Positions 7,078 through 41,865 are shown, numbered from the stretch's first letter. The stretch is 64,000 nt of DNA from Gemmatimonadota bacterium (GCA_016720805.1 JADKJZ010000014.1:516904-580903); one strand, 5' to 3'. Numbers and translations are program-made. The notes: generated from the sequence alone by a model not told the origin.

Positions 7078-7087
7078 TGATTTCAGT

Positions 7088-7102
7088 TGGCAGCAATCTT
7101 GC
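7088..7102 (+). promoter_or_regulatory. Candidate sigma-54 (-24/-12) promoter TGGCAGCAATCTTGC
   Basis: GG-N10-GC spacing is exact. The sequence is close to the TGGCACG-N4-TTGC consensus. It lies about 95 nt upstream of the protease ATG at 7198. Confidence 0.5.
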
Positions 7103-7197
7103 CCGATACTTGGCCAGTAACGCCGCGGCCCTTGGTCGTTCCGAGGATCCGCCTCTGGGGGCTACCCCGCTGGTTTCAGGCTGGAGTCACATTGATC

Positions 7198-10100: not shown

Positions 10101-11475
10101 CGGTGACAACGCCGGGACGACCGCGTGGACCGCGGCGAAGCGGAAGAGCTGGACCACGATCACGACCGGCAGCGGCACCGGCACCGGCACCGCGGCCTGG
10201 ACGCGCAGCACCGCAGGCCTCACGGCGGGCACCTACGTCGACACCATCACCGTGACGGTCGCCGGCCTCGCGCCGCAGCGCGTCATCGACACGTTGCGGA
10301 TCACCGCCGCACCGGTTGCGCTCACCCTGGCGGTGGCGCCTGGTTCGCGGAGCACGACTGCGGCCGCCGGTGCCCCGGCCAGCGGCGACAACGCTGCCGT
10401 GACGTTGAGCGGCGACAACGCCGGCGCCACCCCGTGGACCGCGACCAAGCGGAAGAGCTGGACGACCCTGACCACTGCGGGCGGCACCGGCAGCGGTTCG
10501 GTCGTGTGGACCCGGAACACGGCCGGCCTCAGCGCCGGTACCTATGTCGACACCATCACCGTGGCGGCGTCGGGCCTGTCGCCGCAGCGCGTGATCGACA
10601 CCTTGCGCATCACGTCGGCGCCGGTGCCCGTGACGGTCGCCGTCTCCCCCGGGGGACGTCGGGTCACGGTGACGCGCGGCAACAACGCGGCGAGTGCCAC
10701 CGCGAGCGTCACGCTGGTCGGTACCGACGCCGGCAGCACGGCGTGGCTGGCCACTCGGCGTCGGAGCCAGACGTCGTTCACGACCAGCAGCGGCGTCGGC
10801 AGCGGGACGGTGGCCTGGAACCGGAACACCAGCGCGCTCACCGCCGGCACCTACGTCGACACGATCACCGTGACCGCCGGAGCAGCCACGGCGCGGTTGA
10901 TCGACACGGTGGTGGTGACCACCCCGACCACCGCGACAATCCTCCTGCTGCCGAAGGGCAAGAAGTCGCGCTACCTCACGCAGGCTGGCCGGGCGAACGC
11001 CTTCGCCTCGACGCGTGACTCCGCCCTGGTCGAGGGCGAGGTGATCGAAGGGCAGAGCGACCAGTGGACCGCCGTCATTGGCGGGACAGGCCTCACCGTG
11101 CTCTCCCCGGTCGGTCGGTTGGGGGAATATGTGTACTGGGAGCGGCGGAGCGCGGCGTCCAACGCCGGGTTGTATGTCGACACCGTTCGGGTGCAGTTGG
11201 TTGGGTCTGCCGGTCTCGAGGCGACCTTCGTCGACTCCCTCGAGGTCGTGACGGTGGAAGTGCCCGCCGTCGGGTTGGCCGTGGACGAGCTGGTCCGCGG
11301 TGGGCAGTTGAACAACGACCAGCGCCTGCTCTTCGACAGCGAAGGCAATCGCAACGGTTACTTCGATCTCGGCGACTTCCTCGCCTGGGTCGATCGCGAC
11401 CGGATCCGGCTCTCGCCGTCTCAGGTGGCGAAGCTGCAGTCCATTCCGATCACGCCCGTTCGACCGCGGTCGTAG
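7198..11475 (+). CDS. Secreted subtilisin-like (S8) serine protease with 8-9 tandem 103-aa beta-sandwich-like repeats and a dockerin/EF-hand-like C-terminus
   Basis: Signal peptide MNRPSQILRLASLLIALAATALPGQG, then an I9-like propeptide. Catalytic motifs VMDSGID, HGTHIAG and GTSMAAPHV are present. The repeats run 8458-10923. The tail reads DSEGNRNGYFDLGDFLAWVDR. Confidence 0.85.
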   Translation: MNRPSQILRLASLLIALAATALPGQGGARRVIITLRSSSGEAALRAPGSPPVTSTELSQISARLDRDLPTLVETGRAPFAGMLFAQVSAAEATRLASDPNVAMVEEDRLWSPADAVTALSSGDRWAALRSQPTDGADTTPWGVARVMAPEVWANGNRGAGVKVAVMDSGIDTGHSDLSVAGGYNAVTRVASGYGDDIGACNGHGTHIAGTIAALSNGSGVVGVAPDVQLYAIKVFQDVSGSCLAYTSNQIAGLNWAVSQGIRLVNVSIGGSSSFSYNAAIATAADQGTFLIAAAGNGGGAVLYPAAAPSAIAVAALDDSNLRASWSSFGPEVGFAAPGVNINSTMPGGGYGGKSGTSMAAPHVVGVAALILAAHPGLTLDGLRQKLRDGVLDVDAGGFDNNTGFGLVRAQPSLGGGSPPPPVPLAMSVSPLFRSTTATAGMAATGSSASVSLSGDNAGTTAWNATKRKNWTTLTTASGSGSGTVAWNRSTAGLTAGTYVDTITVSAAGVASQSIIDTLRITAAPVPLTMAVAPLFRSTVATAGTAAAGSSATITLSGDNAGTTAWTAAKRKSWTTLTTASGTGSGTVAWSRSTAGLVAGTYVDTITVSASGVAAQNIIDTLRITAAPVPLALAVSPLSRNATAQVGTAAPGDNATVTLTGDNAGTTPWTTSKRKSWTTLTTGSGTGSGTASWTRSTAGLSAGTYVDTITVTVAGLAPQSVIDTLRITAAPVALALAVSPRSRNTMAQVGTAASGDNAAVTLTGDNAGGTAWTAAKRKSWTTLTTSSGTGTGTAAWTRSTAGLTAGTYVDTITVTVAGLAPQSVIDTLHITAAPVPLALAVSPSSRNASAQVGTAAPGDNAGVTLTGDNAGTTAWTVAKRKSWTTLTTNSGTGNGTAAWTRSTAGLTAGTYVDTITVTVVGLAPQSVIDTLRITAAPVALALAVTPSSRNVATQVGTEAPSDNAAVSLTGDNAGTTAWTAAKRKSWTTITTGSGTGTGTAAWTRSTAGLTAGTYVDTITVTVAGLAPQRVIDTLRITAAPVALTLAVAPGSRSTTAAAGAPASGDNAAVTLSGDNAGATPWTATKRKSWTTLTTAGGTGSGSVVWTRNTAGLSAGTYVDTITVAASGLSPQRVIDTLRITSAPVPVTVAVSPGGRRVTVTRGNNAASATASVTLVGTDAGSTAWLATRRRSQTSFTTSSGVGSGTVAWNRNTSALTAGTYVDTITVTAGAATARLIDTVVVTTPTTATILLLPKGKKSRYLTQAGRANAFASTRDSALVEGEVIEGQSDQWTAVIGGTGLTVLSPVGRLGEYVYWERRSAASNAGLYVDTVRVQLVGSAGLEATFVDSLEVVTVEVPAVGLAVDELVRGGQLNNDQRLLFDSEGNRNGYFDLGDFLAWVDRDRIRLSPSQVAKLQSIPITPVRPRS
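8458..10923 (+). repeat. In-frame tandem repeat with 309-bp period, 8 copies (plus a degenerate 9th downstream)
   Basis: Each copy begins PVPL/PVAL and ends DTLRITAA. Copies start at 8458, 8767, 9076, 9385, 9694, 10003, 10312 and 10621. Antisense ORFs in the track also show the 309-nt periodicity. Confidence 0.9.
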
Positions 11476-17408: not shown

Positions 17409-17942
17409 CTACGGGGAGGCGTCGGTCGACGCCTCCCCGTCGTGCGTCCGGAGAATCCGCGCGGGCACCCCGCCCACGCTGACGCCCGAGGGGACGTCGC
17501 GCACCACCACCGCATTGGCACCGACCCGCACATCACTGCCGATCGTCACCGGGCCGACGATCTTCGCGCCTGCGCCGAGGAAGACGCGGTCGCCGAGCAC
17601 GGGAGACTGATCCTTCTCGGCGCCGATCGTCACCTGATGCTCGACGTAAATCCGGCTGCCGCCGCGCACGGCGCCATTGATCACCACGCCCTGGGAGTGA
17701 ATCAGCACGAAGCCCGGGCCAAAGGTGGCGCCACGACCAATGATGCACTGGCCGAACACGGCATTCACCTTGTTGCAGATCATCGTCAGCGGTGCCAGAT
17801 GGTGTCGATGCGACCAGGCCATCAGACGATAGCACGCCATGGCGAAGGTCCCGTCGGTGAGCAGCGCCTTCAGCAGGGTCGCCGGTCGCGTGTCGCCGTA
17901 GCACCATTCCGCCTTGCAGCGCAGATCCTCGAGAAAGATCAC
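17409..17942 (-). CDS. Hexapeptide-repeat (serine O-acetyltransferase-like) acetyltransferase
   Basis: 177 aa. Left-handed beta-helix repeats (IGRGATFGPGFVLIHSQGVVINGAV.., VFLGAGAKIVGPVTIGSDVRVGANAVV). Confidence 0.8.
   Translation of the reverse strand: MIFLEDLRCKAEWCYGDTRPATLLKALLTDGTFAMACYRLMAWSHRHHLAPLTMICNKVNAVFGQCIIGRGATFGPGFVLIHSQGVVINGAVRGGSRIYVEHQVTIGAEKDQSPVLGDRVFLGAGAKIVGPVTIGSDVRVGANAVVVRDVPSGVSVGGVPARILRTHDGEASTDASP
17413..17438. terminator. GC-rich perfect palindrome at a convergent gene junction
   Basis: The sequence is GGGGAGGCGTCG-gt-CGACGCCTCCCC. It overlaps the last codons of the acetyltransferase gene and lies 25 nt after the stop at 17388. Confidence 0.5.
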
Positions 17943-19255
17943 GGCGTCCCTCCGGCGGTCGCGTCGGTCAGCAGGTCGGCGAGTTGCGAGGCGAGCTGCC
18001 GGCGTTCGAACCGCGCACCGGCGTCGGCCGTCGGGGCGGCCGGCGGCCCCTCCTCCACCAGCCGTCGGAGCCAGCCGGTGATGCCCGCGACATCGGACGG
18101 AAGGTAGTGCCCCCCTGACTGGGCGCCACGCACCAGGGCGGCGATCTCTCCCTCCGGCATCACGGCGAGGATCGGCCGTTGCACGGCGAGGTACTCGAAG
18201 ACCTTGGCCGGCGCGACCCGCTCGGCCCCCGGGAGGTCGCTCAAGAGGAGCAGCAGGGCATCAGCCGACTGCATGGTGGCGAGGGCGATGGCGTGGTCGC
18301 AGTAGGGAATGTCGGCCAGGGTGACGCCGAGCGACGCGAGTGGCGCCAGCAGCGCCTGTTGTTCCGGCGTCTTTCGTCCGACCACCACGAGCTCGAGTCG
18401 GTCGCGGAACTCCGGGGCCCCGGTCACCAACTGTTCAATCGCGCTGATGAGCGGGGCGATCGAGGTGAGGTTCCAGAGCGTGCCGGTGTAGACCAAGCGG
18501 ATGCGTCCGGGGATGCGCGGCGTCGCCGGTGCGACCGTGGCCGCGACCGCCAGGTCATGCGCGTCCCAGCCATTGTAGATGCAGTGCGCAGTGGCCGCCG
18601 AGCCGGCCTCGCGGGCGCGCTCGGCGAGACGCGCGGTACTGGCGGCCGTGGTGGCGATGATCGTCCGGCTCCGTCGCAGCACGGCGCGCTGCATCCGCTG
18701 TTGCACCGCCATCACGAGGCCACCCTGCGCCGCGTTCTCCCAATAGGTGCTGCTGATGTCCCATTCGTCGCGAAAATCACTTAGCAGCGGCAGCCCGCTC
18801 CACCGCGCGAGACGGGCACCGACGAGCAGATTGGAGTAGCTCGGAGCGGTGGCGAGAATCGCATCGTGGGGCAGGCGACGCAGCAGCGCGCGCCCTTGGC
18901 GTATCGCGTCGGGATACCAGAGAATCTGGGGGTCAGGTTGCAGCACCGTGCTGGCGACGCGCCGGAGCAGCGACGGGCGCGTGGCGGCGGTCGACGACGG
19001 CGCGCTGATGCCGGTGGCCTGCTTGGCGGCGTACGATGGCTCGAGTGTGCGCGCGGTGGTGATGACGAGGTCGGGCGGAAGGTCGGCCAGGAGCGTCGGG
19101 TCGAGGAGTGGCACCGACGGGTTGGCCGCCTGGAGCACCGAGACATCCCAGCCAAAGTCGGGGAGGTAGCGTGCGAACTTCGCCGGCCGCTGGACGCCGG
19201 CACCGCCGACCGGCGGGAAGTGGTACGAGACGAGGAGGACGCGCCGTCGACCCAC
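17939..19255 (-). CDS. Glycosyltransferase family 4
   Basis: MGRRRVLLVSYHFPPVGGAGVQRPAKFARYL N-terminus, typical of GT4. 438 aa. Confidence 0.75.
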   Translation of the reverse strand: MGRRRVLLVSYHFPPVGGAGVQRPAKFARYLPDFGWDVSVLQAANPSVPLLDPTLLADLPPDLVITTARTLEPSYAAKQATGISAPSSTAATRPSLLRRVASTVLQPDPQILWYPDAIRQGRALLRRLPHDAILATAPSYSNLLVGARLARWSGLPLLSDFRDEWDISSTYWENAAQGGLVMAVQQRMQRAVLRRSRTIIATTAASTARLAERAREAGSAATAHCIYNGWDAHDLAVAATVAPATPRIPGRIRLVYTGTLWNLTSIAPLISAIEQLVTGAPEFRDRLELVVVGRKTPEQQALLAPLASLGVTLADIPYCDHAIALATMQSADALLLLLSDLPGAERVAPAKVFEYLAVQRPILAVMPEGEIAALVRGAQSGGHYLPSDVAGITGWLRRLVEEGPPAAPTADAGARFERRQLASQLADLLTDATAGGTP

Positions 19256-22796: not shown

Positions 22797-23642
22797 TTGA
22801 GCCTTGATCGTGCGCCGATTGCGAAGCACTCGCCTGTTGTGCTGATCGCGAACGACCAGGAATGGACCGCCCGGGCCGTCGAGAGCATCCTGGTGGCCAA
22901 CGGCTATCGGACCCATCGGGCCCACACCGCCGCCGAGACGCTGGCGATGGCCGACCGGCTCGATCCCGACCTCGTCATCCTCGACCAGCAACTCCCGGAC
23001 TTCCCCGGCACCGAAGTGTGCCGTCGGCTCCGCGCCGACCAGTCGTTCGGGCCGTCGCTTCCGATCATGATCACCACCGCCGGCCCCTCCGGCCGGCAGC
23101 AGCGGATGGCGGCGTACGAGGCCGGGGCGTGGGAGTTCTACGGCCAGCCCCTCGACGCCGAGGCGCTGCTCCAGAAGCTCGCCGTCTATTGCTCGGCCTA
23201 CGGCGAGGTGCGCCAGTTGCGGAGTGACGCCCTCATCGACGCCGAATCGGGGCTCTACACCCGCCCCGGGTTGACCCGGCGCGCCACCGAGTTGCTCGGG
23301 GAAGCGCGGCGGCACCAGCGCGAGCTCAGCTGTGTCGTCTGGGATATTCCTCGCCGCCTCGATCCCATCCAGGCCTCGAACCTCGGCTCTGGGTTGCGTC
23401 GCCAGGGACGCGCCGCCGATGCCTTCGGCCGGATTGCCCACGACCGTTTCGCCGTGGTGGCGCCCGGGGCGTCCCAGCAGGGTGTGGAGCGACTAGTCGA
23501 ACGCTTCGCGAACGTCTTCCGCGAGTCGCTCGCCGACGGCACCCTCGACATTCCCGCGACCGTCATCACGACCAGTCACGAATCGCTGCCGAGCGATGGC
23601 GTCGAACTGCTGGAGCTGCTCAGCCCGGCGATGGCGGCGTGA
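22797..23642 (+). CDS. Response regulator: REC domain fused to a degenerate GGDEF domain
   Basis: REC motifs (VVLIANDQ.., DLVILDQQLPDFPG). The GGDEF-like region begins DAESGLYTRPGL, with GGDEF replaced by AHDRF and RAAD located 5 residues upstream. Start codon uncertain (TTG at 22797). Confidence 0.7.
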   Translation: MSLDRAPIAKHSPVVLIANDQEWTARAVESILVANGYRTHRAHTAAETLAMADRLDPDLVILDQQLPDFPGTEVCRRLRADQSFGPSLPIMITTAGPSGRQQRMAAYEAGAWEFYGQPLDAEALLQKLAVYCSAYGEVRQLRSDALIDAESGLYTRPGLTRRATELLGEARRHQRELSCVVWDIPRRLDPIQASNLGSGLRRQGRAADAFGRIAHDRFAVVAPGASQQGVERLVERFANVFRESLADGTLDIPATVITTSHESLPSDGVELLELLSPAMAA

Positions 23643-23776
23643 TTAGGTGCTAGTCGTTGGTCGTTAGTTGTTAGGTGGCAATGAGCGAAGGGTGAAATGG
23701 GGCCGAAATCGGCGACCATTTCACCCTTTTTCTCGTAGCCTGTAGTGACCAACAACTAAGGACTAACGACTCACGA
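23643..23776. repeat. Nested hairpin element: heptamer-periodic outer arms (TAGTCGT/TGGTCGT/TAGTTGT) around an intrinsic-terminator-like inner stem
   Basis: The inner stem AAGGGTGAAATGG (23688-23700) pairs with CCATTTCACCCTT (23716-23728) and is followed by a T-tract. The outer left arm 23651-23678 is about 80 percent complementary to 23742-23770. The element abuts both convergent stop codons. Confidence 0.8.
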
Positions 23777-26224
23777 GGTCGTCGCCGGCAACTTGCCCAC
23801 ATCCTCGCCTTCATCCGTCGCGCCGTAGCCGTAGCTGTACGAGTAGTACTTGTACTCCGAGGCGCTGGAGCGCACATCGTTGAGCACCGCGCCAATGAGG
23901 CGGATCGGCAGCTGGTCGACGATCTGCAGCTTCGCCTCGGCGAGGTCGCGTTCCGTCGCGCCCGAGCGCATCACCAGGATCATGTTGCCGGTGAGGGTGC
24001 CGAGGACGAAGGGATCGATGCCGGCGCCGAGCGGCGGGGAGTCGACGATGACGACATCGTACGCCTCACGCATCGAGCTGATCAGCTCGCGCATCAGGAC
24101 ACCACCGAGCAGTTCGGGGCCGTTGCGCTTCCGGCTGCCTGCCGTGATCAGCGTGAGCATCGGATGTGAGGTCTTCCGGGTCAGCTGCGCCAGGTCCAGC
24201 TCGCCGGTCAGGTGGTCGAGCAACCCCGGGCGGCGCTCCTGGCCGAAGGTCCGGTGCAACTCGCCGCGGCGGGTGTCGCCATCGATCAGCAGTGTGCGGT
24301 AGCCCGACTCGGCGAACGAGAGTGCCAGATTCGAGGCCACCAATGACTTGCCGTCACCAGGCGACGGCGAGGAAATGGTGAGCACGCCGCGGCCCTCGCC
24401 CATGGTATGGGAGAGATTGAGGCGAATGGTGCGGAACGCTTCGATGACCTGCGCTGCTTCTTCTGCCGACGGCGTCTCGCCCTTGGCCCGGCGAATCTCC
24501 GGCACGACGCCGAGGATGGTAAGGCCGAGGCCGGAGGTGATCTGGTCGGCGTAGCGGACACGCTTGTCGGTGAGGTCGAGCAGGAACGCCAAGCCCAACC
24601 CGCCGGCGAGGCCAGCGAAGAGGCCGACCGCAATGATGACCGACTTCCGGTTCTTGGATGGGAGCAACGGGGCGACCGCCGGGTCATAGATCGAGAGATC
24701 GCTGAGGGCGCTCGCCTCGCGGAGCCGGGCGTTCTCGGAGCGGCCGGTCAGCGACTTGTAGGTCTCATCGGCAATGTCGACTTCCCGCTTGAGACGGTTC
24801 TCTTCGATCGTCCGGCTCGGAATTCCCTGCAACTCGCGACCGGCGTTGGCCACTTCGGAATCGAGGCGCGCGATGTCGCCGTCGAGGCGCCGGAGCACGG
24901 CCTGCGCGTAGGTCGGCAGCGTCTGCGAGCGGATCTCCCGGATGCGGCGGATCAACTCCGGCAGGTCGTAGACGGGGCCACCGGTGACGCCGCAGGCGCG
25001 GCAATCGTCCGAATATCCCTGCGCGCGCGCAGTCCGGAGCTGGGTTTCGTTGGAGACGAGGTCGCCCAGGACCTGCTTCAATTCGGTGCTGTTGTTGACC
25101 GAGGGGATGGTCAGGAAGAGGTCGACCGCGATCTCGCCACCCTGGGCCTTGGCAAGCGCCTCCTGCAGGTCGCGACGATCGCGGCGCAGCCCTTCGGCGG
25201 CCTCGCGCCGGGCAATGAAGGCCGTGTAGCCCTGCGGCGAGGTGCTGGAGAGACCCGGCGTGACCGGCAGTTCCATGCGCGGCTTGGTGATCGAGCCGGT
25301 CTGGAACGCCAGCAGCGCCTGCTCCGCGTTGCGCAGCCGGTCGTACGCACCGCGCAGCTGGGTGTCGACCACGCCGGCCTCGGCCGTCAGGTTGACCCGC
25401 TTCATCACCGCGGCGCGCGTCTCATACTCCTTCAGCAGGGCGTTCAGCGTCGCCGCCGTCTTCTCGGACTCCTGGCCCGACAGCGTCAGCAACACGAATC
25501 GCGCACCGCGGAAGTCGATGTTGACGCCCAGCCGGCTATTGATGTCTTCCGCCGCCTCGCGCTCCGTGATGGCGTCGAACTCGAACGTCTTCCCGTGCCA
25601 GCGCGGCAGGATCGTCGGGAGCCAGGCGAAGCCGAACTCCTTCCCGACCGAGTCGCCGACCACACCACGACTCTTCCGCGACGTCTTGAGCTGCGTCAAT
25701 TCCCAGCCCTTGCCGTCGGCACTGATCTTCATCTCGTACGCCCCGGGCGTGTAGGACGGCCCGATCTCAAGCCCGCTCAGGAGCGCCGCATCCGGGCCGC
25801 TCGGCCCGTTGGGGAGCGGCGGCCCGCCGAGCCGCTTCGGCCCGATCAGGTAGAGGTGCTGGGCCCGGGCGACGGGCTCGAGCGAGCGGTAGGATCGCAT
25901 GAACTTCTGCCACTGATCGCCACCCAGGACGGCGCCTGCCGAGATCGGCCCGTTGTCGCCGACCGGCATCGCCAGGAGCATCGAGGCCCGCACGACAAAG
26001 CTCTCCGGCCGCATCCGCGAGACCAGGAAGCCCCCGCCCAGGCCCAGCAGCGCCATCAGCAGCACCAGCCACTTGAAGCGCCGCAGGGTCGACAGGTACC
26101 GGGTGATCGGGGAGGTCCGGGGTCCGCCGCTGTTTCCGGTCAATGGCGAACCTGCGCCCAAGGCGCCGCCACCAGCGGGGAAGCTCGGCAAGTTGCCGGA
26201 GAGTGGGGTCAGCTGAGTGTTCAT
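23771..26224 (-). CDS. Fused chain-length determinant (Wzz/EpsF-like) and BY-type tyrosine autokinase (EpsG/Wzc-like)
   Basis: ATG at 26224. N-terminal TM (FKWLVLLMALLGLGGGFLV), a coiled periplasmic region and a second TM. Walker A motif SSPSPGDGKSLVASNLA. C-terminal Tyr cluster EYKYYSYSYGYG. Confidence 0.85.
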   Translation of the reverse strand: MNTQLTPLSGNLPSFPAGGGALGAGSPLTGNSGGPRTSPITRYLSTLRRFKWLVLLMALLGLGGGFLVSRMRPESFVVRASMLLAMPVGDNGPISAGAVLGGDQWQKFMRSYRSLEPVARAQHLYLIGPKRLGGPPLPNGPSGPDAALLSGLEIGPSYTPGAYEMKISADGKGWELTQLKTSRKSRGVVGDSVGKEFGFAWLPTILPRWHGKTFEFDAITEREAAEDINSRLGVNIDFRGARFVLLTLSGQESEKTAATLNALLKEYETRAAVMKRVNLTAEAGVVDTQLRGAYDRLRNAEQALLAFQTGSITKPRMELPVTPGLSSTSPQGYTAFIARREAAEGLRRDRRDLQEALAKAQGGEIAVDLFLTIPSVNNSTELKQVLGDLVSNETQLRTARAQGYSDDCRACGVTGGPVYDLPELIRRIREIRSQTLPTYAQAVLRRLDGDIARLDSEVANAGRELQGIPSRTIEENRLKREVDIADETYKSLTGRSENARLREASALSDLSIYDPAVAPLLPSKNRKSVIIAVGLFAGLAGGLGLAFLLDLTDKRVRYADQITSGLGLTILGVVPEIRRAKGETPSAEEAAQVIEAFRTIRLNLSHTMGEGRGVLTISSPSPGDGKSLVASNLALSFAESGYRTLLIDGDTRRGELHRTFGQERRPGLLDHLTGELDLAQLTRKTSHPMLTLITAGSRKRNGPELLGGVLMRELISSMREAYDVVIVDSPPLGAGIDPFVLGTLTGNMILVMRSGATERDLAEAKLQIVDQLPIRLIGAVLNDVRSSASEYKYYSYSYGYGATDEGEDVGKLPATTS

Positions 26225-26277
26225 AACGCCCGCAGAAAAGAGGGTCGAGCCACGTCGTGAGCCTAGTCGGGACCGCT

Positions 26278-26292
26278 GCGTTGCAACTGCCA
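26278..26292 (-). promoter_or_regulatory. Weak sigma-54-like site (minus strand TGGCAGTTGCAACGC)
   Basis: GG-N10-GC spacing fits, but the -12 element is ACGC rather than TTGC. It lies about 55 nt upstream of the kinase-gene ATG at 26224. Confidence 0.25.
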
Positions 26293-26445
26293 TACCGCGC
26301 CGCGGGGGTGGGGTGTGGAGTTGGTGACGCGACAATGTGTTGCGTCAGCACAACACTGTGGTGGTGCGCTCGCGAAACAGGTGATACGTTCAAACCACGG
26401 AATTGGCCAATGAGCGCCTGCGACGATGGACCCGTCCAACAGTCG

Positions 26446-26460
26446 CGGCACGCTTTCTGC
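26446..26460 (+). promoter_or_regulatory. Candidate sigma-54 promoter CGGCACGCTTTCTGC
   Basis: GGCACG matches the -24 core and GG-N10-GC spacing is exact. The -12 element is CTGC. It lies about 50 nt upstream of the regulator ATG at 26510. Confidence 0.4.
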
Positions 26461-26509
26461 CTCGGTGGTTGGGGAGTTCATCCTACGATTGCTTGAATCA
26501 GGAGTTACC

Positions 26510-27989
<1,480 letters not shown>

Positions 27990-28009
<20 letters not shown>

Positions 28010-29066
28010 CCTGATGCCGTTGGCCCCCGATGCCCGCCGCTGGTTGGACGAAGCGGCCGAGGCGCTGGTCGAGGAGTGGCGCGGCTTTGCCGTCGACGCG
28101 ATTTCGCAGGGTGAGGTGGCCGCGGCCGTGGCCGGCGTCGTCGCGCAGATTGTCGAGGCCGCTGCCGGCCGACCGCGTGCCCCGGAACCCTCCTCGCCGC
28201 TGGATCGCCGCGTGGTGGCGTTGCTTCGACGCCACCTGCTCGAACACGACGAGGCGGTGCCGCCCGGCGGACTCCGTCCCGTGCTGCGGGCGCTCGAACA
28301 GGTGGCGGCGTCGATGGAGCCGCGGTGGACCGAGCGATTCCAGGAACGGATGACCGGCCCGAGCGGCCTCGACCTGGTCGTCGAGGTGGCGCACGACCTG
28401 CGCTCGCCGCTCACGTCGATTCTCTTTCTCGCCGAGATCATGCTCCGCGGCCGGAGCGGGCCGTTGACGCCGCTGCAAGAGCGTCAACTCGGACTGGTCT
28501 ACTCGGCGGCATTCGGGTTGAACGCGGTCGCGAGCGACGTGATCGAACTGGTGCGCGGTGGCGATCGCCTGGTCGGGCGGGAGCCGCAGCCGTTCTCGGT
28601 CGCGGAAGTGCTCGAGTCGGTGCGCGACATCGTCCGTCCCATCGCCGAAGAGAAGGGGTTGGAGCTGCACTTCGAAGGGCCGGGGCGCGACCGTCGGGTC
28701 GGGCACCCCGGAGCCCTGAACCGCGTCCTGCTCAATCTGACCACCAACGCGCTGAAGTTTTCCTCGGCCGGCCACGTCGAGGTGACGTTGACCGACGGGG
28801 CAGGACTGGCGCTGGACTGCACCGTCCGCGACACCGGCCGGGGGATTCCCGAGGCCGCGATGGCGACGCTCTTCGAACCCTTCCGCCGTCGGCAGCAGCC
28901 GGGCGATTACGCCTTCTCCGGTTCGGGCCTCGGCCTCTCGATCTGTCGCAAGCTGGTCGAGGCGATGGGCTCGACGCTTGAAGTCTCCGCCGTCGCGGGC
29001 GAGGGGACCTGTTTTCAGTTCACGCTGCAGTTGCCCGAGGCCGATCCCGCCATGCTGATCGGCTGA
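27990..29066 (+). CDS. Soluble sensor histidine kinase (HisKA + HATPase_c)
   Basis: H-box [13 protein letters not shown]-box [13 protein letters not shown]-boxes DTGRGIP and [13 protein letters not shown]. No TM helix is visible. The start is either GTG at 27990 (20-nt overlap) or ATG at 28014. Confidence 0.85.
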
Positions 29067-29133
29067 GGACCTGCCGCTCCCCCCCGTCCGCTCGTACCTT
29101 TGGGGTCTTGTCCCGACACACCGAGACGATCCC

Positions 29134-30690
29134 GTGATCACCACGCACCTCGCCCATCAGTTCGGCGCTCGCGCCGCCAGGCATCCGACTCGACCCTTCC
29201 TCATCGAGGGGGAGCATCGCCACAGCTGGGGCGAGATCGCCCTTCGCAGTGACGCGCTGGCGCGTGCATTTCGCGGGCAGGGACTCGCCGCCGGCGATCG
29301 GATCGGGATCGACCTGCCCAACGGGACGGAGTGGGTGGTGGCGATGTTGGCCGCAGCCCAGGCAGGACTCACCATCGTCCCGCTCGATCCCGAGCTCGGC
29401 TACCACGAGCTGAAATACCAGTTGCGCCACGCGGAAGTCTCGGCCGTCGTGATCCCCGAGGCACCGACACCCGTCGACTACCTCGAGTTGTTCGACGAGG
29501 TCCTCCCCGAGCTGCCGTCGCTGCACCTGATCGTCTACGCCGGACCGGGGACCCGCTGGTTCGACGATCGTGCCGTCCCGTTCGGCGAGATGCTCGCGCG
29601 CGGCGAACGGCTGCCCGCACTGGCGCCGGGTGACGACGCGGATGCCGCGTTGGCGCTGGTCTACACCTCCGGCACGATGGGGAAGCCGAAAGGCGTGCTG
29701 CTCTCGCATCGCGCGATGGTCGCCTCCGCCGTGGGCACGGCGAGTGCACTCGGCCTCGCCGACGATGACTGCATCCTGCAGGCGCTCCCGCTCTTCCACG
29801 TCTTCGGCCTCTCGGTGCTGCTCACCGCGATCAGCGCCGGCGCGTCGGTGGTGCTGATGCCGCGCTTCGATGCGGCGGGCGCCCTCGCACTGATCGCCAA
29901 CGCCGGGGTCACCCATCTGCCCGGCGTGCCGACGATGTTCGAATTGCTGATGCGCGACCCGGCGTTCGTCACCACGCCGCTCGGTCGCCTGCGCGGCGGC
30001 GTTGTCGCGGGGAGCATGGTGCTCCCGCCACTGGTGGATCGGATTCGCCAGTGGTGCGATGTGGAGATCGCGTATGGCCTCACCGAGGCAGGGCCGACGG
30101 TCACCGCCACTCGGCGGAGCGATCCGCTCGAAAAGCGCCGCACGACGGTCGGGCGTCCGATCGACGGCGTCGAGGTCCGCGTGGTCGACGTCCGGAGCGG
30201 CGTGCTTCACGGTGCCGAGGCGGTGGGTGAATTGGTCGTGAAGGGCACCACGCTGATGGACGGCTATCACCGGATGCCGAACGAGACCGCGCGGACGCTC
30301 ACCCCGGAAGGCTACCTGCTGACGGGGGACCTGGCCCTGCTCGATGAGGACGGCTTCGTGACCATCGTCGCGCGCCGGAAGGAAGTGATCGTGCGGGCGG
30401 GGCAGACGGTGACGCCGCGGGAGTTGGAGGACGTGATCCGCACCCATCCTGGCGTCGAGGAGGTCTGCGTCGTCGGCGTCCCGCACGACGTGCTGGGCGA
30501 GCTGATCTGCGCCTGCGTGGTGCTGTTGGAGGGGGCCGTGGTCACCGGCCCCGATCTGCGCCGCTTCTGCCAGGACCTCCTCTCGGCCACCAAGGTGCCC
30601 GATCTGGTCCGCTTCTTCGACGGTCTCCCGATGACGGCCAGTGGCAAGGTCAAGCGCCAAGAGTTGGCACGGGTGGTCGCGCTCGGCTAG
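29134..30690 (+). CDS. AMP-dependent acyl-CoA/acyl-carrier ligase (exosortase-locus-associated type)
   Basis: AMP-binding motifs [19 protein letters not shown] and TGDL, plus C-terminal SGKVKR. GTG start. Confidence 0.85.
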
Positions 30691-30877
30691 CTTTGAGGGT
30701 CCGACGCGCGGGCGCCATTGGGGCGCCGCACGGACCGCACGCCGTCTCGATCGTTGCCTGCCCCGACCCCATGATGCCCGCCACTCGGCGCGGCGAGGTC
30801 GGGAGGACAAGACCGGGGACGGCCACACACACAGGACCGTCGTGACTTCGCTCCCCGCTTTTCGGGCCGGACGGCAT

Positions 30878-32515
30878 ATGGCCGTACCCGCCCTGCACGC
30901 GCCCAATGCGGCGCTGCTGATCGACTTCGACAATGTGACCCTTGGCGTCCGTTCCGACCTCACCAAGGAACTCCGCACCCTCCTCAACTCCGACATCATC
31001 AAGGGCAAGGTCGCCGTGCAGCGCGCCTATGCCGATTGGCGCCGCTACCCGCAGTACATCGTGCCGCTGTCGGAATCCTCAATCGACCTGATCTTCGCCC
31101 CCGCCTTCGGGACCAACAAGAAGAACGCCACCGACATCCGGCTCGCCGTCGACGCGGTGGAGCTCGTCTTCACGCGTCCGGAGATCGGCACCTTCATTCT
31201 GCTCTCGGGCGACAGCGACTTCTCGTCGCTGGTGCTGAAGCTGAAGGAGTACGGCAAGTACGTCATCGGCGTCGGCATCCGCGAGTCGGCCTCCGACATC
31301 CTGATCCAGAACTGCGACGAGTACTTCTCGTACTCGGACCTCGCAGGCCTGACCAAGGAGAGTGACGCGCCGTCGGCGCAGCGCGATCCCTGGGAGCTGG
31401 TCGTCGAGGCGGTGCAGAAGATGGCGGCGCAGGGCGACGTCATGCGCTCCGATCGCCTGAAGCAGGTCATGCAGCAGATCGACCCGAACTTCGACGAGAG
31501 CAACGCCGGCTTCAATCGCTTCTCCAAGTTCGTCACCGAGGCCGGGGCGCGCGGCTTGATCCAGGTGATCAAGCAGGAGAACGGGCAGTACGACGTCGCG
31601 CCCGGCAAGGGTGTGCCGGCGGCCGCGCCCGTGAAGGAGAGTCGCCCGCCGCGCGGTCGTGGCGGGCGTGGTCCGTCCGCGACGGCAGTCGCCGCGCCGG
31701 CGCCTGCCGTGCGCGCCGCCGAGGCCGCACCGGCCGATGGCAAGTCCGCCGAAGAGCGGGCAGGGCGTCGTCGGGGTCGTGGTCGCGGACGCGGGCGCGG
31801 GAAGGGCGAGGAGGGCGCAACTCCGTCGACCGCCGCGCCGAGTGCCGCGGCACCGTCGGCGCCGTACGTCGCCGAGCCGAGTGGGCTGACGCTCGCCGAA
31901 GCATTCCACCTTCTGGGTCGTGCGCTCGGTGAATTGCCGACGCCGGCCGGTCACGAGGTGGTCCGCGCCCGCATGGCGGCGTTGCACGGCACCGAGGATG
32001 TGCTGCTCGAAGTGCCGCGCTTCTTCAAGCTGCTGCGGCAGGCCAACGACGCCGAAGTCGCCGATGTCCGCTTGCTCGGCGACGATCAGTACGAGGTGTC
32101 GCCGCACCGGATGGAGCTGGCGATGCAACGTCGGTCCGCGCCAGAAGCCAACGCGGCCCCGGTGCTCGACGCCGAAGGCAACGCGGCGCCGCGTCCGGGG
32201 ATCCGATTCCGCGGCGGTGCGCGGACCCCGGCGTCCTCCGGGATGCCGATGGTCGGCGTGATCAACCTCACGCCGGTCGGTGCCGTGACGCTCGAGGCGC
32301 CGGTGACGAAGCCGGTGGCAGAGGCCCCGACCAAGGCGACGAAGCCCGCCAAGGGGACCAAGGCGGAGGCCAAGCCCGCCGCCAAGGTCGCCAAGGCAGC
32401 GGCACCCGCCAAGACGCCCAAGGCTGCAGCCCCCGCCAAGGCGCCGAAGGCTGCGGCCAAGCCCGCTCCCAAGGCGAAGGCGGCGGTGAAGAAGGCGGCA
32501 CCGAAGAAGAAGTAG
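30878..32515 (+). CDS. NYN-domain protein with two OST-HTH/LOTUS-like modules, an RG-rich linker and a Lys/Ala/Pro-rich basic tail
   Basis: NYN core (LIDFDNV.., KNATDIRLAVDAVE, ILLSGDSDFSSLV). LOTUS-like segments lie at about 31380-31600 and 31880-32100. The linker reads GRRRGRGRGRGRGKG. The tail reads KPAAKVAKAAAPAKTPKAAAPAKAPKAAAKPAPKAKAAVKKAAPKKK. Confidence 0.75.
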   Translation: MAVPALHAPNAALLIDFDNVTLGVRSDLTKELRTLLNSDIIKGKVAVQRAYADWRRYPQYIVPLSESSIDLIFAPAFGTNKKNATDIRLAVDAVELVFTRPEIGTFILLSGDSDFSSLVLKLKEYGKYVIGVGIRESASDILIQNCDEYFSYSDLAGLTKESDAPSAQRDPWELVVEAVQKMAAQGDVMRSDRLKQVMQQIDPNFDESNAGFNRFSKFVTEAGARGLIQVIKQENGQYDVAPGKGVPAAAPVKESRPPRGRGGRGPSATAVAAPAPAVRAAEAAPADGKSAEERAGRRRGRGRGRGRGKGEEGATPSTAAPSAAAPSAPYVAEPSGLTLAEAFHLLGRALGELPTPAGHEVVRARMAALHGTEDVLLEVPRFFKLLRQANDAEVADVRLLGDDQYEVSPHRMELAMQRRSAPEANAAPVLDAEGNAAPRPGIRFRGGARTPASSGMPMVGVINLTPVGAVTLEAPVTKPVAEAPTKATKPAKGTKAEAKPAAKVAKAAAPAKTPKAAAPAKAPKAAAKPAPKAKAAVKKAAPKKK

Positions 32516-32532: not shown

Positions 32533-32610
32533 CGTGAAAGGTGAAACGTGAAAGGTGAAACGGGGGCCAATGTGGGCCTCCGTTTCACCTCTTACGTTTT
32601 ACGCTTCTCG
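32533..32610. repeat. Hairpin element with (SGTGAAA)x4 left arm, a GC inner stem and a degenerate complementary right arm
   Basis: The left side reads CGTGAAA GGTGAAA CGTGAAA GGTGAAA CGGGGGCC, the loop is aatgt, and the right side reads GGGCCTCCG TTTCACC TCTTACG TTTTACG CTTCTCG. It lies between convergent stops at 32515 and 32613. Confidence 0.8.
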
Positions 32611-33760: not shown

Positions 33761-35152
33761 ATGCTGTTCAACAGTTTCATCTTCCTCTTCGCCTTCCTGC
33801 CAGTCACCTACGTGGTGTTCTGGCTGCTGGGGACGGCCCGCAGTCGCTATGTCTGGCTCACCATCACCGGATATGTCTTCTACGGCTACTGGGACTGGCG
33901 CTTCTGCTTCCTGATGGCCTTCTCGACGCTGGTCAGTTATACGGCCGGACTCGGGATGCTCCGCTTCGATGCCGACCCGCGCAAGCGGAAGCTCTGCCTG
34001 ATTGTCCCGATCACGGTCGACCTGGCGCTGCTCGGCTTCTTCAAATATGCAAACTTCGGGCTCGGCGCGTTCCGGGACGCGATGCACGCCACCGGCCTCG
34101 ACGTCTCGGTCCCCCATCTCGACGTGATCCTCCCGATCGGCATCTCCTTCTACACCTTCCACACCATCAGCTACATCGTCGATGCCTATCGGCGCCAGAT
34201 CACCCCGACGAGGAACCTCTGGGAGTTCGCGTCGTACGTCTCCCTCTTCTCGCAGCTGGTCGCCGGACCGATTGTCCGCTTCCGGCAGATCGAGGCAGAC
34301 CTCGAGGCGCTCGGCACCGCGAGCCGGACCCACTGGCTCCGGACCGGCGTGTCGATCTTCGTGGTCGGGCTGGTCGAGAAGGTGATCCTCGCCGACACCC
34401 TGGCCGCGTTCGTCGACCCGGTGCTGGCGCAGTGGGGCACGGCCTCGACCGGCGCCATCTGGCTCGCGATGCTCGGCTACACCTTTCAGCTCTACTTCGA
34501 CTTCTGCGGCTACAGCAGCATGGCCGTCGGCCTCGGCTACATGTTCGGCCTGCGCATCCCGCGCAACTTCAACTCGCCCTACAAGAGCCTCGACCCGTCG
34601 GAATTCTGGAATCGTTGGCACATCTCGCTCTCGACCTGCATGCGAGACTACCTCTACATCCCCTTCGGCGGCAATCGCGGTGGCACGCTCAAGACCTACC
34701 GCAACCTGCTGCTGACGATGCTCATCGGCGGGCTGTGGCACGGCGCGAACTGGACGTTCATTGTCTGGGGACTCTACCACGGGGTATTGCTCGGCGCCCA
34801 TCGTGCCGCCGGCCGGGGCTGGGATGCCCTGCCGGCGCGCCTTCGCCAGGTCGGCATGGTGTTCGCCGCGCTGATCGGCTGGGTCTTCTTCCGGGCGCTC
34901 GACATGCCGATGGCCATCGGGATGCTGCGGAAGATGTTTTCCCCGGTGGCCGGTGTCTCCGTGCCGCAGGCCTCGTGGGCCGCCGCCGCGGTCGTCATCG
35001 CCGCGATCTGGGGGATGTACGGCCCCAACATCTACGACCTCGATTACCGGCCGCGCTGGTGGAAGAACGCCGTGCTGGCCACCGCGTTCGGCGTGGCGCT
35101 GGCGTTGATTGCGGGGGATCGGAGCAGTCCGTTCCTCTACTTCCAGTTCTAG
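33761..35152 (+). CDS. MBOAT family O-acyltransferase (AlgI/DltB-like)
   Basis: MLFNSFIFLFAFLPV N-terminus. Conserved FWNRWHISLSTCMRDYLYIPFGGNRGG and GLWHGANW motifs. Confidence 0.9.
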   Translation: MLFNSFIFLFAFLPVTYVVFWLLGTARSRYVWLTITGYVFYGYWDWRFCFLMAFSTLVSYTAGLGMLRFDADPRKRKLCLIVPITVDLALLGFFKYANFGLGAFRDAMHATGLDVSVPHLDVILPIGISFYTFHTISYIVDAYRRQITPTRNLWEFASYVSLFSQLVAGPIVRFRQIEADLEALGTASRTHWLRTGVSIFVVGLVEKVILADTLAAFVDPVLAQWGTASTGAIWLAMLGYTFQLYFDFCGYSSMAVGLGYMFGLRIPRNFNSPYKSLDPSEFWNRWHISLSTCMRDYLYIPFGGNRGGTLKTYRNLLLTMLIGGLWHGANWTFIVWGLYHGVLLGAHRAAGRGWDALPARLRQVGMVFAALIGWVFFRALDMPMAIGMLRKMFSPVAGVSVPQASWAAAAVVIAAIWGMYGPNIYDLDYRPRWWKNAVLATAFGVALALIAGDRSSPFLYFQF

Positions 35153-35263
35153 GATGATGGATGATGGATGATGGATGATGGACCAACAGCGAAGGGGAGC
35201 GTCGACTGGGGATCGGCGCTCCCCTTCGCCGTTCGCCCATCCATCATCCATCATCCATCATCC
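35151..35263. repeat. Nested hairpin element: (GGATGAT)x4 ... inner 13-bp GC stem ... (ATCATCC)x3.5
   Basis: Left arm at 35152-35179. The inner stem GCGAAGGGGAGCG (35189-35201) pairs with CGCTCCCCTTCGC (35217-35229). Right arm at 35239-35263. The element lies between convergent stops at 35152 and 35269. Confidence 0.9.
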
Positions 35264-38210: not shown

Positions 38211-38796
38211 GATCAATCCGGTGGTGAGGAAGCGCCAAATATGGGTGGCCGACCGGAGCAACCCAAGGTCCCCCCGTCGCAGCCGTCGGAAAGATTTTGA
38301 CCGTTCGTGGCCATTTTCGGGGGAGCGGCGGACCGGGCGCGCGGAGGGGAAAAATCCCCCGCTCGCGGCCGGTTGGAGGATGTCGTCGCGTGCGCGGCGC
38401 GCACCGCGCGGCATCGGCGCGTTCGGGAGGTGATGCACGTGGTGGTGCGTGACGTGCACTCGCGCGTGTCGCGGGAAGCCGCATTTCACAAGGCTTTGCG
38501 GTCGACGCGCACACAGTGCGACATCGCGACGTGCCGGTGCGCGCGATGCAACACACGCCGCGCGCGCATCGTGATGCCGCCCCGTGGCGCCGCGTTCTCG
38601 GCGCCAAATCCATGTGGACGATCGGTGGAAGCCGATGCCCCGGTGAGGGTTCCGGGTTGCGGGGGGTATTGCGCCCGGAAGGAAAATTTTGATCTTGTAT
38701 ATGCCGACGCTACTCCGCCGACAGGAGCGGGTCGTCGCCGTGAGTACCGCACGTACGTCGAGTGCTCACGAATTTTTTAATCCTCAGGGAGGCTCC

Positions 38797-39000
38797 ATGG
38801 CTACCAAGAAGGCTGCGAAGAAGGCCGCGAAGCGGCCGGCGAAGAAGGCCGCGAAGAAGGCTGCCAAGCGTCCGGCGAAGAAGGCCGCGAAGAAGGGCGC
38901 GAAGAAGGCTGCCAAGCGTCCGGCGAAGAAGGCTGCCAAGAAGGCCGCCAAGCGTCCGGCGAAGAAGGCCGCCAAGAAGGCCGCGAAGAAGGCTGCGTAA
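38797..39000 (+). CDS. Histone H1-like / AlgP-like Lys-Ala-Pro repeat basic protein
   Basis: GGAGG lies 5 nt upstream of the ATG. The product is 67 aa, MATKKAAKKAAKRPAKKAAKKAAKRPAKK.. A hairpin terminator lies downstream. Confidence 0.7.
   Translation: MATKKAAKKAAKRPAKKAAKKAAKRPAKKAAKKGAKKAAKRPAKKAAKKAAKRPAKKAAKKAAKKAA
38806..38997 (+). repeat. In-frame 36-bp (12-aa, KKAAKKAAKRPA) tandem repeat, about 5 copies
   Basis: Read directly from the coding sequence of the H1-like gene. Confidence 0.8.
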
Positions 39001-41194: not shown

Positions 41195-41818
41195 ATGCGC
41201 GAGAATCTAGCCGCCACCCTCCGTCTCCTGCTCGTGACCGACGACGCCCTCCTCGGCGCGCGCGACCCGATCGCCGTGGCGCGGGCGGCCGTCGCGGGAG
41301 GCGTGACCGCCATCCAGCTCCGGCTCAAGCACGCCTCCGATCGTGATCTGCTCGCGCTGGCCCGTCACCTGGTGGCGTTGCTCCCCGTCCCGATCTTCGT
41401 CAACGACCGACTCGACATCGCCCTCGCCGCCGGCGCGGCGGGCGCCCATCTTGGCGCGGACGACCTTCCCCCAGCCCGAGCTCGGCGCATTGTTCCGGCT
41501 GGCTTCCTCCTCGGAGCGTCGGTGGGCAGTCCCGCCGAGATCGAGCGCGGTCTCGCCGCCGACTATTGGGGAATCGGGCCCCTGCACGGCACCAGCACGA
41601 AGGGCGACGCGGGGGACGCGCTTGGACTTGATGGCGCCGCGACGCTGCTGGCGCAGGCAGGCACGCGGCCATGCGTGGTTATCGGTGGCGTGCTGCCGGA
41701 CGATGTCGCGCCGGCGCTCGCGGCAGGCTTTGCGGGCGTCGCGGTCGTGCGCGGAATTCTGGGGGGGGAGGATGTCGAGGAGAGGGCGAGGAAGTACCGG
41801 ATGATGGATGATGGATGA
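41195..41818 (+). CDS. thiE: Thiamine-phosphate synthase
   Basis: 207 aa. Motifs LLLVTD.., VTAIQLRLK, FVNDRLDIALAAGA.GAHLG and VVIGGV. The last 5 codons (MMDDG) and the stop lie inside a GGATGAT array. Confidence 0.8.
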   Translation: MRENLAATLRLLLVTDDALLGARDPIAVARAAVAGGVTAIQLRLKHASDRDLLALARHLVALLPVPIFVNDRLDIALAAGAAGAHLGADDLPPARARRIVPAGFLLGASVGSPAEIERGLAADYWGIGPLHGTSTKGDAGDALGLDGAATLLAQAGTRPCVVIGGVLPDDVAPALAAGFAGVAVVRGILGGEDVEERARKYRMMDDG

Positions 41819-41865
41819 TGGATAATTGCAGAATGCTGTCATCCATCATCGATCATCGATCATCC
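41799..41865. repeat. Hairpin element (GGATGAT)x3-GGATAAT / loop / CATCC-ATCATCG-ATCATCG-ATCATCC
   Basis: Read directly. The left arm contains the thiE stop (41816-41818). The right arm contains the mltG stop (41860-41862). Confidence 0.9.

Follow-up and report, generated by a model that had tools for sequence, protein, structure and literature searches.

What does a palindrome built from 7-nucleotide (nt) repeats do when it occupies the whole interval between the 3' ends of two genes? The question is raised by a spacer in a Gemmatimonadota bacterium, of which we analyzed one 64,000-nt stretch (GCA_016720805.1 JADKJZ010000014.1:516904-580903; here, the window). Judged from its closest relatives, the window belongs to the Gemmatimonadales. 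A heptamer-armed element fills the entire 128-bp spacer between two convergent genes, a response-regulator gene on the + strand and a tyrosine-kinase-type gene on the - strand; the spacer has a G+C content of 49%, compared with 68% for the window. We compared the window with 75 related loci, labeled L001 and so on, for 1.11 Mb of Gemmatimonadales sequence in all. The spacer element is one of a clade-restricted population of heptamer-armed hairpins that lie directly after stop codons in some Gemmatimonadales. On balance, its sequence points to a layered palindromic element at two gene 3' ends that probably acts as a bidirectional terminator or insulator and gives a stable RNA 3' end.

The outer layer of the element is a pair of inverted heptamer arrays. 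An 8-nt linker, TTAGGTGC (23643 to 23650, + strand), follows the response-regulator stop codon and contains the first out-of-frame TAG (23644). The left array begins 9 nt past the stop codon and forms the outer left arm, TAGTCGT TGGTCGT TAGTTGT TAGGTG (23651 to 23677, + strand), recovered by Tandem Repeats Finder (TRF), by inverted-repeat detection and in a shuffle test; in another register its unit is GTCGTTA, and the arm is rich in G and T (G-C = +5). The outer right arm, GACCAAC AACTAAG GACTAAC GACTCAC GA (23745 to 23776, + strand; TRF and inverted repeat), is the complement of the left arm and reads TGAGTCG TTAGTCC TTAGTTG TTGGTCA on the - strand. Its TRF array includes the stop codon of the kinase gene (TCA on the + strand, 23771 to 23773). 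Between 23652 to 23672 and 23751 to 23771, the two outer arms are 90% complementary over 21 nt.

Enclosed by these arms is a hairpin that is itself partly made of heptamers. Its left arm, GCGAAGG GTGAAAT GG (23685 to 23700, + strand; sequence, inverted repeat, and folding), continues the 7-nt register of the outer left arm, which runs unbroken into GCGAAGG GTGAAAT. The stem portion of this arm, AAGGGTGAAATGG (23688 to 23700, + strand), pairs with the inner right arm, CCATTTCACCCTT (23716 to 23728, + strand; inverted repeat), over 13 nt at 100% complementarity. The loop of 15 nt (23701 to 23715) can fold a 4-bp mini-hairpin, GCCG (23702 to 23705) with CGGC (23710 to 23713). Five T residues, two inside the stem and three beyond it, follow at 23727 to 23731 (+ strand; sequence and folding); on the - strand they become an A run before the stem, and a U-tract is thus present in the + transcript only. 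An earlier, sequence-only reading of the spacer had described much of this anatomy correctly: the bases after the TGA (TTAGGTGC TAGTCGT TGGTCGT TAGTTGT TAGGTGG), the TAG triplets, the perfect 13-bp stem, and a second outer arm complementary to the first and holding the kinase stop are all as it gave them. Beyond the element, the terminal 18 nt of the two coding sequences (23625 to 23642 and 23771 to 23788) are 78% complementary, CCGGCGATGGCGGCGTGA with TCACGAGGTCGTCGCCGG. The palindrome may therefore extend weakly into both genes, and chance within GC-rich codons is a possible explanation.

The periodicity of the arms is not an accident of base composition. TRF assigned period 7 to both the left arm (23651 to 23674, 3.4 copies, 82% matches, score 34) and the right arm (23747 to 23776, 4.3 copies, 73% matches, score 32). 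Each arm has an identity of 0.68 at a lag of 7, compared with 0.04 to 0.48 for all remaining lags between 2 and 13. Only 0.025% of 20,000 dinucleotide shuffles of the spacer matched the period-7 score (P = 0.00025), and 0.3% did so once the score could come from any period between 4 and 12 (P = 0.003). The argument of the sequence-only reading, which was to fail if the periodicity were no different from that of shuffled spacer, survives this comparison.

Folding supports both layers. As RNA, the inner hairpin reaches -29.9 kcal/mol on the + strand, where its stem of 13 to 14 bp lies just downstream of the stop codon and has a z score of -6.8, and -27.5 kcal/mol on the - strand. The whole spacer reaches -74.8 kcal/mol (+; z about -11) and -61.6 kcal/mol (-; z about -9), and folding with and without the outer arms, a check proposed from the sequence alone, assigns them about 45 (+) and 34 (-) kcal/mol as RNA. 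At the spacer, the + strand folds better by 13 kcal/mol because its mismatches are G-U there; counted by hand over all pairs, G-U against A-C mismatches stand at 15 versus 11, which is uninformative as to the selected RNA strand.

Single-stranded DNA of the spacer also folds well (-41.9 kcal/mol for the + strand and -35.4 for the -; z about -10 and -8), as would suit a site acting at the DNA level, whether a cruciform, a G-quadruplex or a protein-binding array read in 7-bp repeats by, for example, a nucleoid or replication protein. The heptamers of Xanthomonas and Nostoc do form G-quadruplexes in vitro (PMC4692102). The arms examined here have no GGG run and so lack what a G-quadruplex needs, and the at least 12 unrelated units found in the class as a whole argue against a single sequence-specific binding protein. 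Transition mismatches readable as G-U outnumber other mismatches by about 26 to 9 in a hand count, which leans slightly toward a role in RNA. A DNA-level site is, in our judgment, scarcely credible.

A different function is suggested by the stop codons in and just before the left arm. TAG triplets at 23644, 23651, 23665, and 23672 lie in frames +1, +2, +1, and +2 relative to the response-regulator gene and so cover both frames other than its own. A heptamer is two codons plus one nucleotide (7 = 2x3+1), so that any unit with a stop in it places stops in every frame over a run of three units. The arrays might in that case be an all-frame backup stop device, catching read-through or frameshifted ribosomes at both gene ends. 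The paired families of the window (GGATGAT, CGATGAT, GTGAAAG, and GTCGTTA) have sense-strand stops, most arms in all three frames; several open reading frames (ORFs) end at a TGA within an array; and none of the antisense arms has a stop in every frame. Of the 48 sense arms in the class, 16 have stops in all three frames and 27 are free of stops; units that contain none are GCGAGAA, GCGAACn, AGGAAAC, CAGGGTT, CCGAGGA, and GGGGCGC. The device would also leave the complementary second arm and the central hairpin unexplained, and we consider it very improbable. Stop content characterizes certain unit families rather than the class as a whole, contrary to the earlier suggestion that it was part of the shared architecture.

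How widespread is this layout? The window alone has 12 period-7 arrays and none of period 4, 5, or 8 to 11. Throughout the 1.11 Mb, 42 period-7 arrays score at least 12; the corresponding counts for periods 4, 5, 8, 10, 11, and 13 are 1, 0, 0, 0, 1, and 2. Arrays whose period is a multiple of three are mostly coding repeats, and period 7 is the only other period that is strongly over-represented. The arrays start 0 to 20 nt past a stop codon. When gene ends were taken from a crude gene call based on G+C at third codon positions, period-7 arrays scoring at least 9 were present in 16 of 78 convergent, 4 of 85 co-directional, and 0 of 83 divergent spacers, the divergent spacers being longer than the other classes; other periods from 4 to 12 gave at most one case per spacer class. 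Array density is highest in the clade of the window: the window has 12 in 64 kb, L001 has 7 in 22.6 kb, and L005 has 5 in 19 kb.

Most arrays occur in inverted pairs, of which we found 24, drawn from at least 12 unit families. In 23 of the 24, the stop-proximal arm has more G than C, and in 23 it is purine-rich, the one arm that is not purine-rich being the G+T-rich proximal arm of the spacer described here. The order of G- or purine-rich arm, hairpin, and pyrimidine-rich arm is the same on both strands. A survey of the heptamers, also proposed beforehand, found that each genome has one dominant unit plus units specific to particular loci: GGATGAT dominates in the window, GCGAGAA in L001, L005, L006, and L036, CAGGAAA in L029 and L030, CAGGGTT in L027, L033, and L072, and AGTGAGA in L062.

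We then asked whether known repeat or RNA families account for these elements. The units stand head to tail without spacers, and CRISPR or any other spaced-repeat system was rejected on this ground. Rfam had no match in the whole window at the gathering threshold, and a permissive search of 23500 to 31000 returned two sub-threshold chance matches only, to a microRNA model and a Ruegeria small RNA. A 21-mer common to the inner stems of the window and L001 matched two metagenome contigs, in both cases within coding sequence, and these matches were set aside as chance. We found no description of such elements in Gemmatimonas, Gemmatimonadetes, or Gemmatimonadota in the literature outside subscription journals.

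The orthologous spacer in related species shows how the element changes over time. A second sample of the same species (L092, 99.5% DNA identity) has an identical spacer. In the L001 species, represented by nine samples whose spacers are identical apart from one single-nucleotide polymorphism, the alignment runs straight through the spacer at 79.9% identity, with the same inner stem and with arms of GTCGTAA, GTCGTGA, and GTCCTGA. Arms of the GTCGTnn type are also present in L093 (TGAGTCG and TGAGTCC; response-regulator protein 84% identical) and, around a different core, in L005 (kinase protein 83% identical). Other units occupy the spacer elsewhere: GCGAACn arms occur in L091, the closest other species, and in L004 and L095; GGACCGn arms in L094 (response-regulator protein 77% identical); and GCGAGAA arms in L036 and L006 (kinase protein 61 to 62% identical). 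Four unit families thus occupy one orthologous spacer in different species. In distant orthologues, with kinase proteins from 73% (L003) down to about 54 to 57% identical, the site holds a plain hairpin (L010, L011, L014, L026, and L038), several with an A-tract or U-tract.

Core and arms evolve at different rates. The window and L082 share 91% identity in the spacer core, compared with 79.9% overall in an alignment that runs through the spacer, and the core is more conserved than the flanking genes. The arms evolve much faster, with 44 to 74% identity between orthologous arms of different species and 87 to 90% complementarity between the two arms within a species. Positions 6 and 7 of the unit change in a compensatory manner (TA/TA in the window, GA/TC in L001, and AG/CT in L005), and irregular units are mirrored between arms, as for AGTTGTT in the window spacer, AGGGAAC in L029, and GATAGCC in L094. 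These compensatory changes and mirrored units indicate that the arms are true inverted copies, not two independently slipping arrays.

Such patterns might also arise as a neutral by-product, if slippage-prone heptamers accrete beside an ordinary terminator and palindrome-templated repair keeps the arms alike while neither is under selection. Heptanucleotide repeats are the commonest long simple repeat in many bacteria, with slippage as the explanation, according to work cited in PMC4692102 and PMC4679880. The rapid evolution of the arms relative to the core fits this account, as do the mirrored irregular units, which are what arm-to-arm templating would produce. Many units are also within one or two changes of the GCGAAGG motif at the base of inner stems (GCGAGAA, GCGAACG, GTGAAAG, and GTGAGGG), a resemblance that suggests one route by which arrays could be seeded. 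A strand-symmetric process would not be expected to place the G-rich arm proximal to the stop in 23 of 24 pairs, nor does it predict the total absence of arrays from the 83 divergent spacers, although these are longer. The arrays are, moreover, stable between strains: no copy-number variation was seen between two samples of the window species, among nine of the L001 species at the spacer, or between two assemblies at a GCGAGAA site. Few samples were compared, and stability is to be expected of degenerate arrays. A purely neutral origin appears doubtful to us.

Whole elements turn over as well. Between L091 and the window, 1669 nt are 88.9% identical, including an upstream noncoding spacer, and the last 30 residues of the response regulator are identical; the similarity ends at base 23640, where an unrelated GCGAACn element takes over in L091. 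So abrupt a change indicates replacement rather than drift. Within the window, the inner hairpin aligns with 32534 to 32606 (invariant positions GGTGAAA.GG.GCC.A..T.GGC..CC.TTTCACC), where its counterpart is flanked by four GTGAAAG/GTGAAAC units. This homology and the shared 7-nt register identify the spacer element as a nested composite of two heptamer-armed layers. L004 is similarly layered, with GCGAACn outside and GTGAGGG inside.

Copying between sites is clearest for the GCGAGAA elements of L001 and L005, in which GCGAGAA arms surround one conserved core (GGCCCRGCGG-AGAGATCT-CCGCCGRGCC) at three sites within 10 kb. The same three sites in the window hold GGATGAT, GTGAAAG, and nothing. The empty site reads TAG c TTTGAGGG and lacks a block of about 180 nt that is present in L001 and L005, made up of a heptamer-armed hairpin of about 95 nt and a C/T-rich tail of about 80 nt, and placed between the stop codon and conserved downstream sequence. 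The inner element is present in 2 copies in 64 kb, and the GCGAGAA element in 3 copies in 10 kb of L001. In L097, a contig of 111,703 bp ends inside a GCGAGAA array and core (17931 to 17965), which indicates that these elements break short-read metagenome assemblies.

These results bear on whether the layout reflects selection on architecture rather than the copying of one repeat, as the sequence-only reading had argued from two unrelated units that share a period, and they support it in part. One repeat has not simply been pasted around, given that at least 12 heptamer units build the same layout and four families occur at this one spacer. Copying is nevertheless evident from the homology between the inner hairpin and 32534 to 32606 and from the GCGAGAA elements with one core at three sites. 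Nor is a common period sufficient by itself to argue for selection, as period 7 is favored in many bacteria.

The main rival to a terminator function, and one compatible with it, is a selfish, nonautonomous element that resembles a MITE (a miniature transposable element with inverted repeats) or a REPIN (a hairpin-forming pair of repetitive extragenic palindromes [REPs]), is tolerated after stop codons, and has the heptamer arrays as its terminal inverted repeats. Any terminator activity would then be incidental or inherited from the hairpin that it carries. The GCGAGAA copies around one core, the site left empty in the window, the exchange at base 23640 in L091, and the homologous inner layer, which suggests nested insertion, all agree with this possibility, and the 111-kb contig that ends inside an array is what multicopy DNA would give. 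REPs likewise occur less than 20 bp from 3' ends and in some cases contribute the stop codon (PMC3733652). At the filled and empty sites (L001 5486 to 5661 versus window 30688 to 30700), there is no clear target-site duplication, at most TA. Eight ORFs in unannotated gaps of the window matched peptidase M50, an Na/H exchanger, an endonuclease/exonuclease/phosphatase family protein, or nothing, and no RAYT (REP-associated tyrosine transposase) or other transposase was among them, in a window that covers about 1 to 2% of a genome. The five GGATGAT-type elements of the window have cores unrelated to each other, the spacer element is retained between species that share 80% identity, where its core is better conserved than the genes on either side, and tandem heptamer arrays are not known from described REPs or MITEs. 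We regard a selfish element as possible but tentative.

The same observations would also fit a new kind of small mobile palindrome, carried by some Gemmatimonadales, that has tandem-heptamer arms and inserts exactly at the base following a stop codon, where copies could also nest or replace one another. If this were true, the element might itself supply the stop codon, a dedicated enzyme would be needed for its propagation, and the 7-nt unit would reflect the mechanism of that enzyme rather than generic polymerase slippage. We think a system of this kind unlikely.

Is the inner hairpin, then, a terminator? Two-way terminators have an A- or purine-rich 5' flank, a GC-rich hairpin, and a U- or pyrimidine-rich 3' flank, so that the design is the same on both strands, and the polarity of the heptamer arms parallels this A-tract/hairpin/U-tract plan. 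Plain hairpins at the same site in distant orthologues indicate that a terminator position has been conserved. This position, the confinement of elements to gene ends, and the two-strand polarity lead us to favor a bidirectional terminator or insulator. The hairpin had been called a classic intrinsic terminator; its stem and T run are as described, and "classic" does not quite fit a 15-nt loop, only three T residues past the stem, and a negative terminator scan.

Several observations weigh against this favored interpretation. A scan for consensus terminators made no call at the spacer. The U-run is a short one, it comes ahead of the right arm, and only one strand has it. With efficient termination at the inner hairpin, RNA in the sense of the response-regulator gene would never form the outer stem; given the position of the U-run, that stem can form only in read-through transcripts, kinase-sense RNA, or DNA. 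Arrays are patchy: of 37 Gemmatimonadales loci that reach 15 kb or more, only 9 contain any, so that most relatives terminate without them. The constancy of copy number between strains gives no sign of ongoing slippage. Finally, the dispersed copies, the filled and empty site, and the wholesale replacement fit a selfish element equally well.

A working model for the terminator or insulator draws on the sequence, periodicity, folding potential, conservation, genomic distribution, polarity, and element turnover described above, from which we infer termination, RNA stabilization, slippage, and a way of copying elements. The outer, degenerate arrays of GTCGTTA abut or overlap both convergent stop codons and enclose the hairpin of GCGAAGG/GTGAAAT units. 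In this model, the inner hairpin and its short U-run would end most transcripts of the response-regulator strand. Kinase-sense transcripts, which would meet no U-run, and some response-regulator-sense transcripts would read through, and in both the distal pyrimidine-rich arm would be transcribed. That arm could zip onto the proximal G-rich arm to give a stem of roughly 40 to 45 bp with a predicted energy of -62 to -75 kcal/mol. Such a stem could force RNA polymerase off as a U-tract-poor terminator does, and it could also stand in the way of 3' exonucleases or be a target for RNase III. The convergent genes would thereby be kept from making antisense RNA over each other. Over evolutionary time, the 7-nt units would expand and turn over by replication slippage, arm complementarity would be maintained by selection for pairing, by hairpin-templated correction, or by both, and whole elements would be gained, lost, replaced, and copied between sites.

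The closest relatives of these elements in the literature are the GGGAATC arrays of Xanthomonas and the GGGGA(C/T)T arrays of Nostoc, whose function is unresolved (Rehm et al. 2015, PMC4692102). Those arrays too are intergenic tandem heptamers that lie 0 to 50 bp from a stop codon or overlap it with the G-rich strand coding, form convergent (inverted) pairs, are rare between divergent genes, and recur at the same gene pairs in sister species with variable length and sequence (PMC4692102). In Xanthomonas and Nostoc, 70 to 75 cases per genome of two convergently oriented arrays have the potential to form a stem-loop, and the Xanthomonas arrays able to form G-quadruplexes have more transcript starts or stops than control repeats (PMC4692102). 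The spacer element has the same hallmarks, with at least 3 head-to-tail units above chance, a stop-adjacent position, a G-rich coding strand, and an inverted pair. The differences are equally plain. One G-tract unit dominates in Xanthomonas and Nostoc and forms G-quadruplexes, whereas the Gemmatimonadales use at least 12 units, most without G runs. Unlike those arrays, the Gemmatimonadales arrays surround a GC hairpin distinct from themselves and may occur as two layers, one inside the other, some families have a conserved core and are present or absent between species, and the host phylum is Gemmatimonadota.

Other known repeats share fewer features. Period 7 is favored among the long repeats of many bacteria, a preference ascribed to slippage of the polymerase (work cited in PMC4692102 and PMC4679880). 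The short tandemly repeated repetitive sequences (STRR) of cyanobacteria and the heptanucleotide simple repeats found in excess in bacteria, known from a 2007 genome survey and a Calothrix report that these two papers cite, resemble our arrays in period, intergenic location, lineage-specific units, and proposed slippage origin; as the two citing papers present them, they are direct arrays, and the paired inverted layout around a stop-codon hairpin falls outside that description. REPs and REPINs are likewise extragenic palindromes; they lie beside convergent or co-directional genes, less than 20 bp from the 3' end, are often inverted dimers that form a long hairpin, and sometimes donate a stop codon, and they occur in lineage-specific multicopy families whose G-T pairing in stems suggests an RNA role (PMC3733652, PMC3116915). 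The REP unit is a single palindrome of 20 to 40 nt with an unpaired GTAG or CGTC tag, whereas the Gemmatimonadales arms are tandem heptamers (PMC3733652). Among the elements studied here, GTAG occurs only inside paired units of L005.

An integron attC site was also rejected: GTTAGGT (23670 to 23676) fits GTTRRRY but lies at the ORF-proximal end of the spacer in a conserved housekeeping locus, while an attC site carries RYYYAAC beside the cassette ORF, has GTTRRRY at its distal end, and belongs to an array of cassettes. Bidirectional and U-tract-poor terminators of high-GC bacteria likewise lie between convergent genes and have the same two-strand polarity. The flanks of ordinary two-way terminators are short A or U runs, whereas those of the present class are tandem heptamer arrays of 20 to 70 nt.

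The remaining arrays of the window illustrate the range of the class (coordinates on the + strand). The sister element at 32534 to 32606, in a convergent spacer, consists of four GTGAAAG/GTGAAAC units, a core of GGGGGCC..GGGCCTCC, and a degenerate complementary arm. Another convergent spacer (35152 to 35263) holds a GGATGAT (4.4 copies) and ATCATCC (3.7 copies) pair around a GCGAAGGGGAGCG hairpin. A GGATGAT/TCATCGA pair (41799 to 41865) lies between co-directional - strand genes and overlaps the stop of the upstream gene. At 49458 to 49542, GGATGAT (6.9 copies) is paired with ATCCATC (3.6 copies) and the upstream ORF ends at a TGA within the array; at 55467 to 55628, between co-directional + strand genes, GATGATG (5.6 copies) is paired with ATCCATC (10.6 copies), again with the upstream ORF stop within the array. 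Three ORFs thus run into a GGATGAT-type array and end at its TGA (49458 to 49470, 55467 to 55471, and 41860 to 41865), so that the arrays have replaced, or supply, the native stop and the last protein residues.

Two more arrays of the window stand without a separate partner. The CGATGAT array (8.6 copies, 819 to 885), which fills a 60-nt convergent spacer and has no separate partner array, is partly self-complementary; its unit contains the palindrome ATCGAT, which accounts for only modest self-folding (-28.9 kcal/mol, z = -3.1). The G-rich array at 54054 to 54110 has no inverted partner and grades from GCGGGGA through GCGAGAA and GCGAGGG to four copies of GTGAGGG; it is the only array of the window with G-quadruplex-type units. 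It is also alone of its kind and position in the window; the spacer is probably divergent, since the - strand gene is likely to start at GTG 54038 (VKRVLLLLVDGL...).

The genes that flank the spacer belong to a polysaccharide-export locus whose gene order is conserved across the order. The response-regulator gene (22797 to 23642, + strand; stop TGA 23640 to 23642) encodes a protein of 281 amino acids (aa). It had been labeled a REC-GGDEF gene; Pfam detects the REC domain only, and GGDEF is present in homologues. The convergent gene (23771 to 26335, - strand; stop TGA 23771 to 23773) is of the Wzz/GNVR/P-loop tyrosine-kinase type by Pfam.

The window has several other notable features. A noncoding stretch, TTTGAGGGTCCGACGCGCGGGCGCCATTGGGGCGCCGCACGGACCGCACGCC, lies just after a stop codon in the window (30692 to 30745), in L001 (5486 to 5535, - strand), and in L005 (about 1870 to 1920, - strand). 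It is almost identical across species that are only about 80% identical overall. A GGCGCC-ATTGG-GGCGCC hairpin within it makes the stretch a candidate for a structured RNA or a leader, at which the permissive Rfam search found nothing. A 309-nt tandem repeat (8520 to 10628, 6.8 copies, 78% identity) lies within a 1463-codon ORF (7087 to 11475), presumably the gene for a repetitive protein that is secreted or sits at the surface. Repeats of 24, 36, and 48 nt at 38806 to 38997 encode a lysine- and alanine-rich, AKKAAKKA-like sequence in a 104-codon ORF (38689 to 39000), which resembles a histone-H1-like tail. The region 59225 to 61395 has a G+C content of 0.60, compared with 0.68 for the window, and may be foreign DNA; its ORFs at 59895 to 61145 (- strand, 416 aa) and 59311 to 59898 (- strand, 195 aa) have no Pfam match.

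On a practical level, these elements break metagenome assemblies and may mislead gene callers at 3' ends, with some ORFs ending in arrays. Their wider significance lies in an open question: why heptanucleotide repeats are common in bacterial intergenic DNA and what role stop-adjacent inverted pairs play (PMC4692102). With many unrelated units, one layout, and no need for a quadruplex, the Gemmatimonadales clade offers a cleaner test than arrays that form G-quadruplexes. The compensatory change of the arms, the G-rich-first polarity, and a single site that holds any of four unit families or a plain terminator amount to natural swap experiments, which address whether the arms affect termination, read-through, or mRNA stability.

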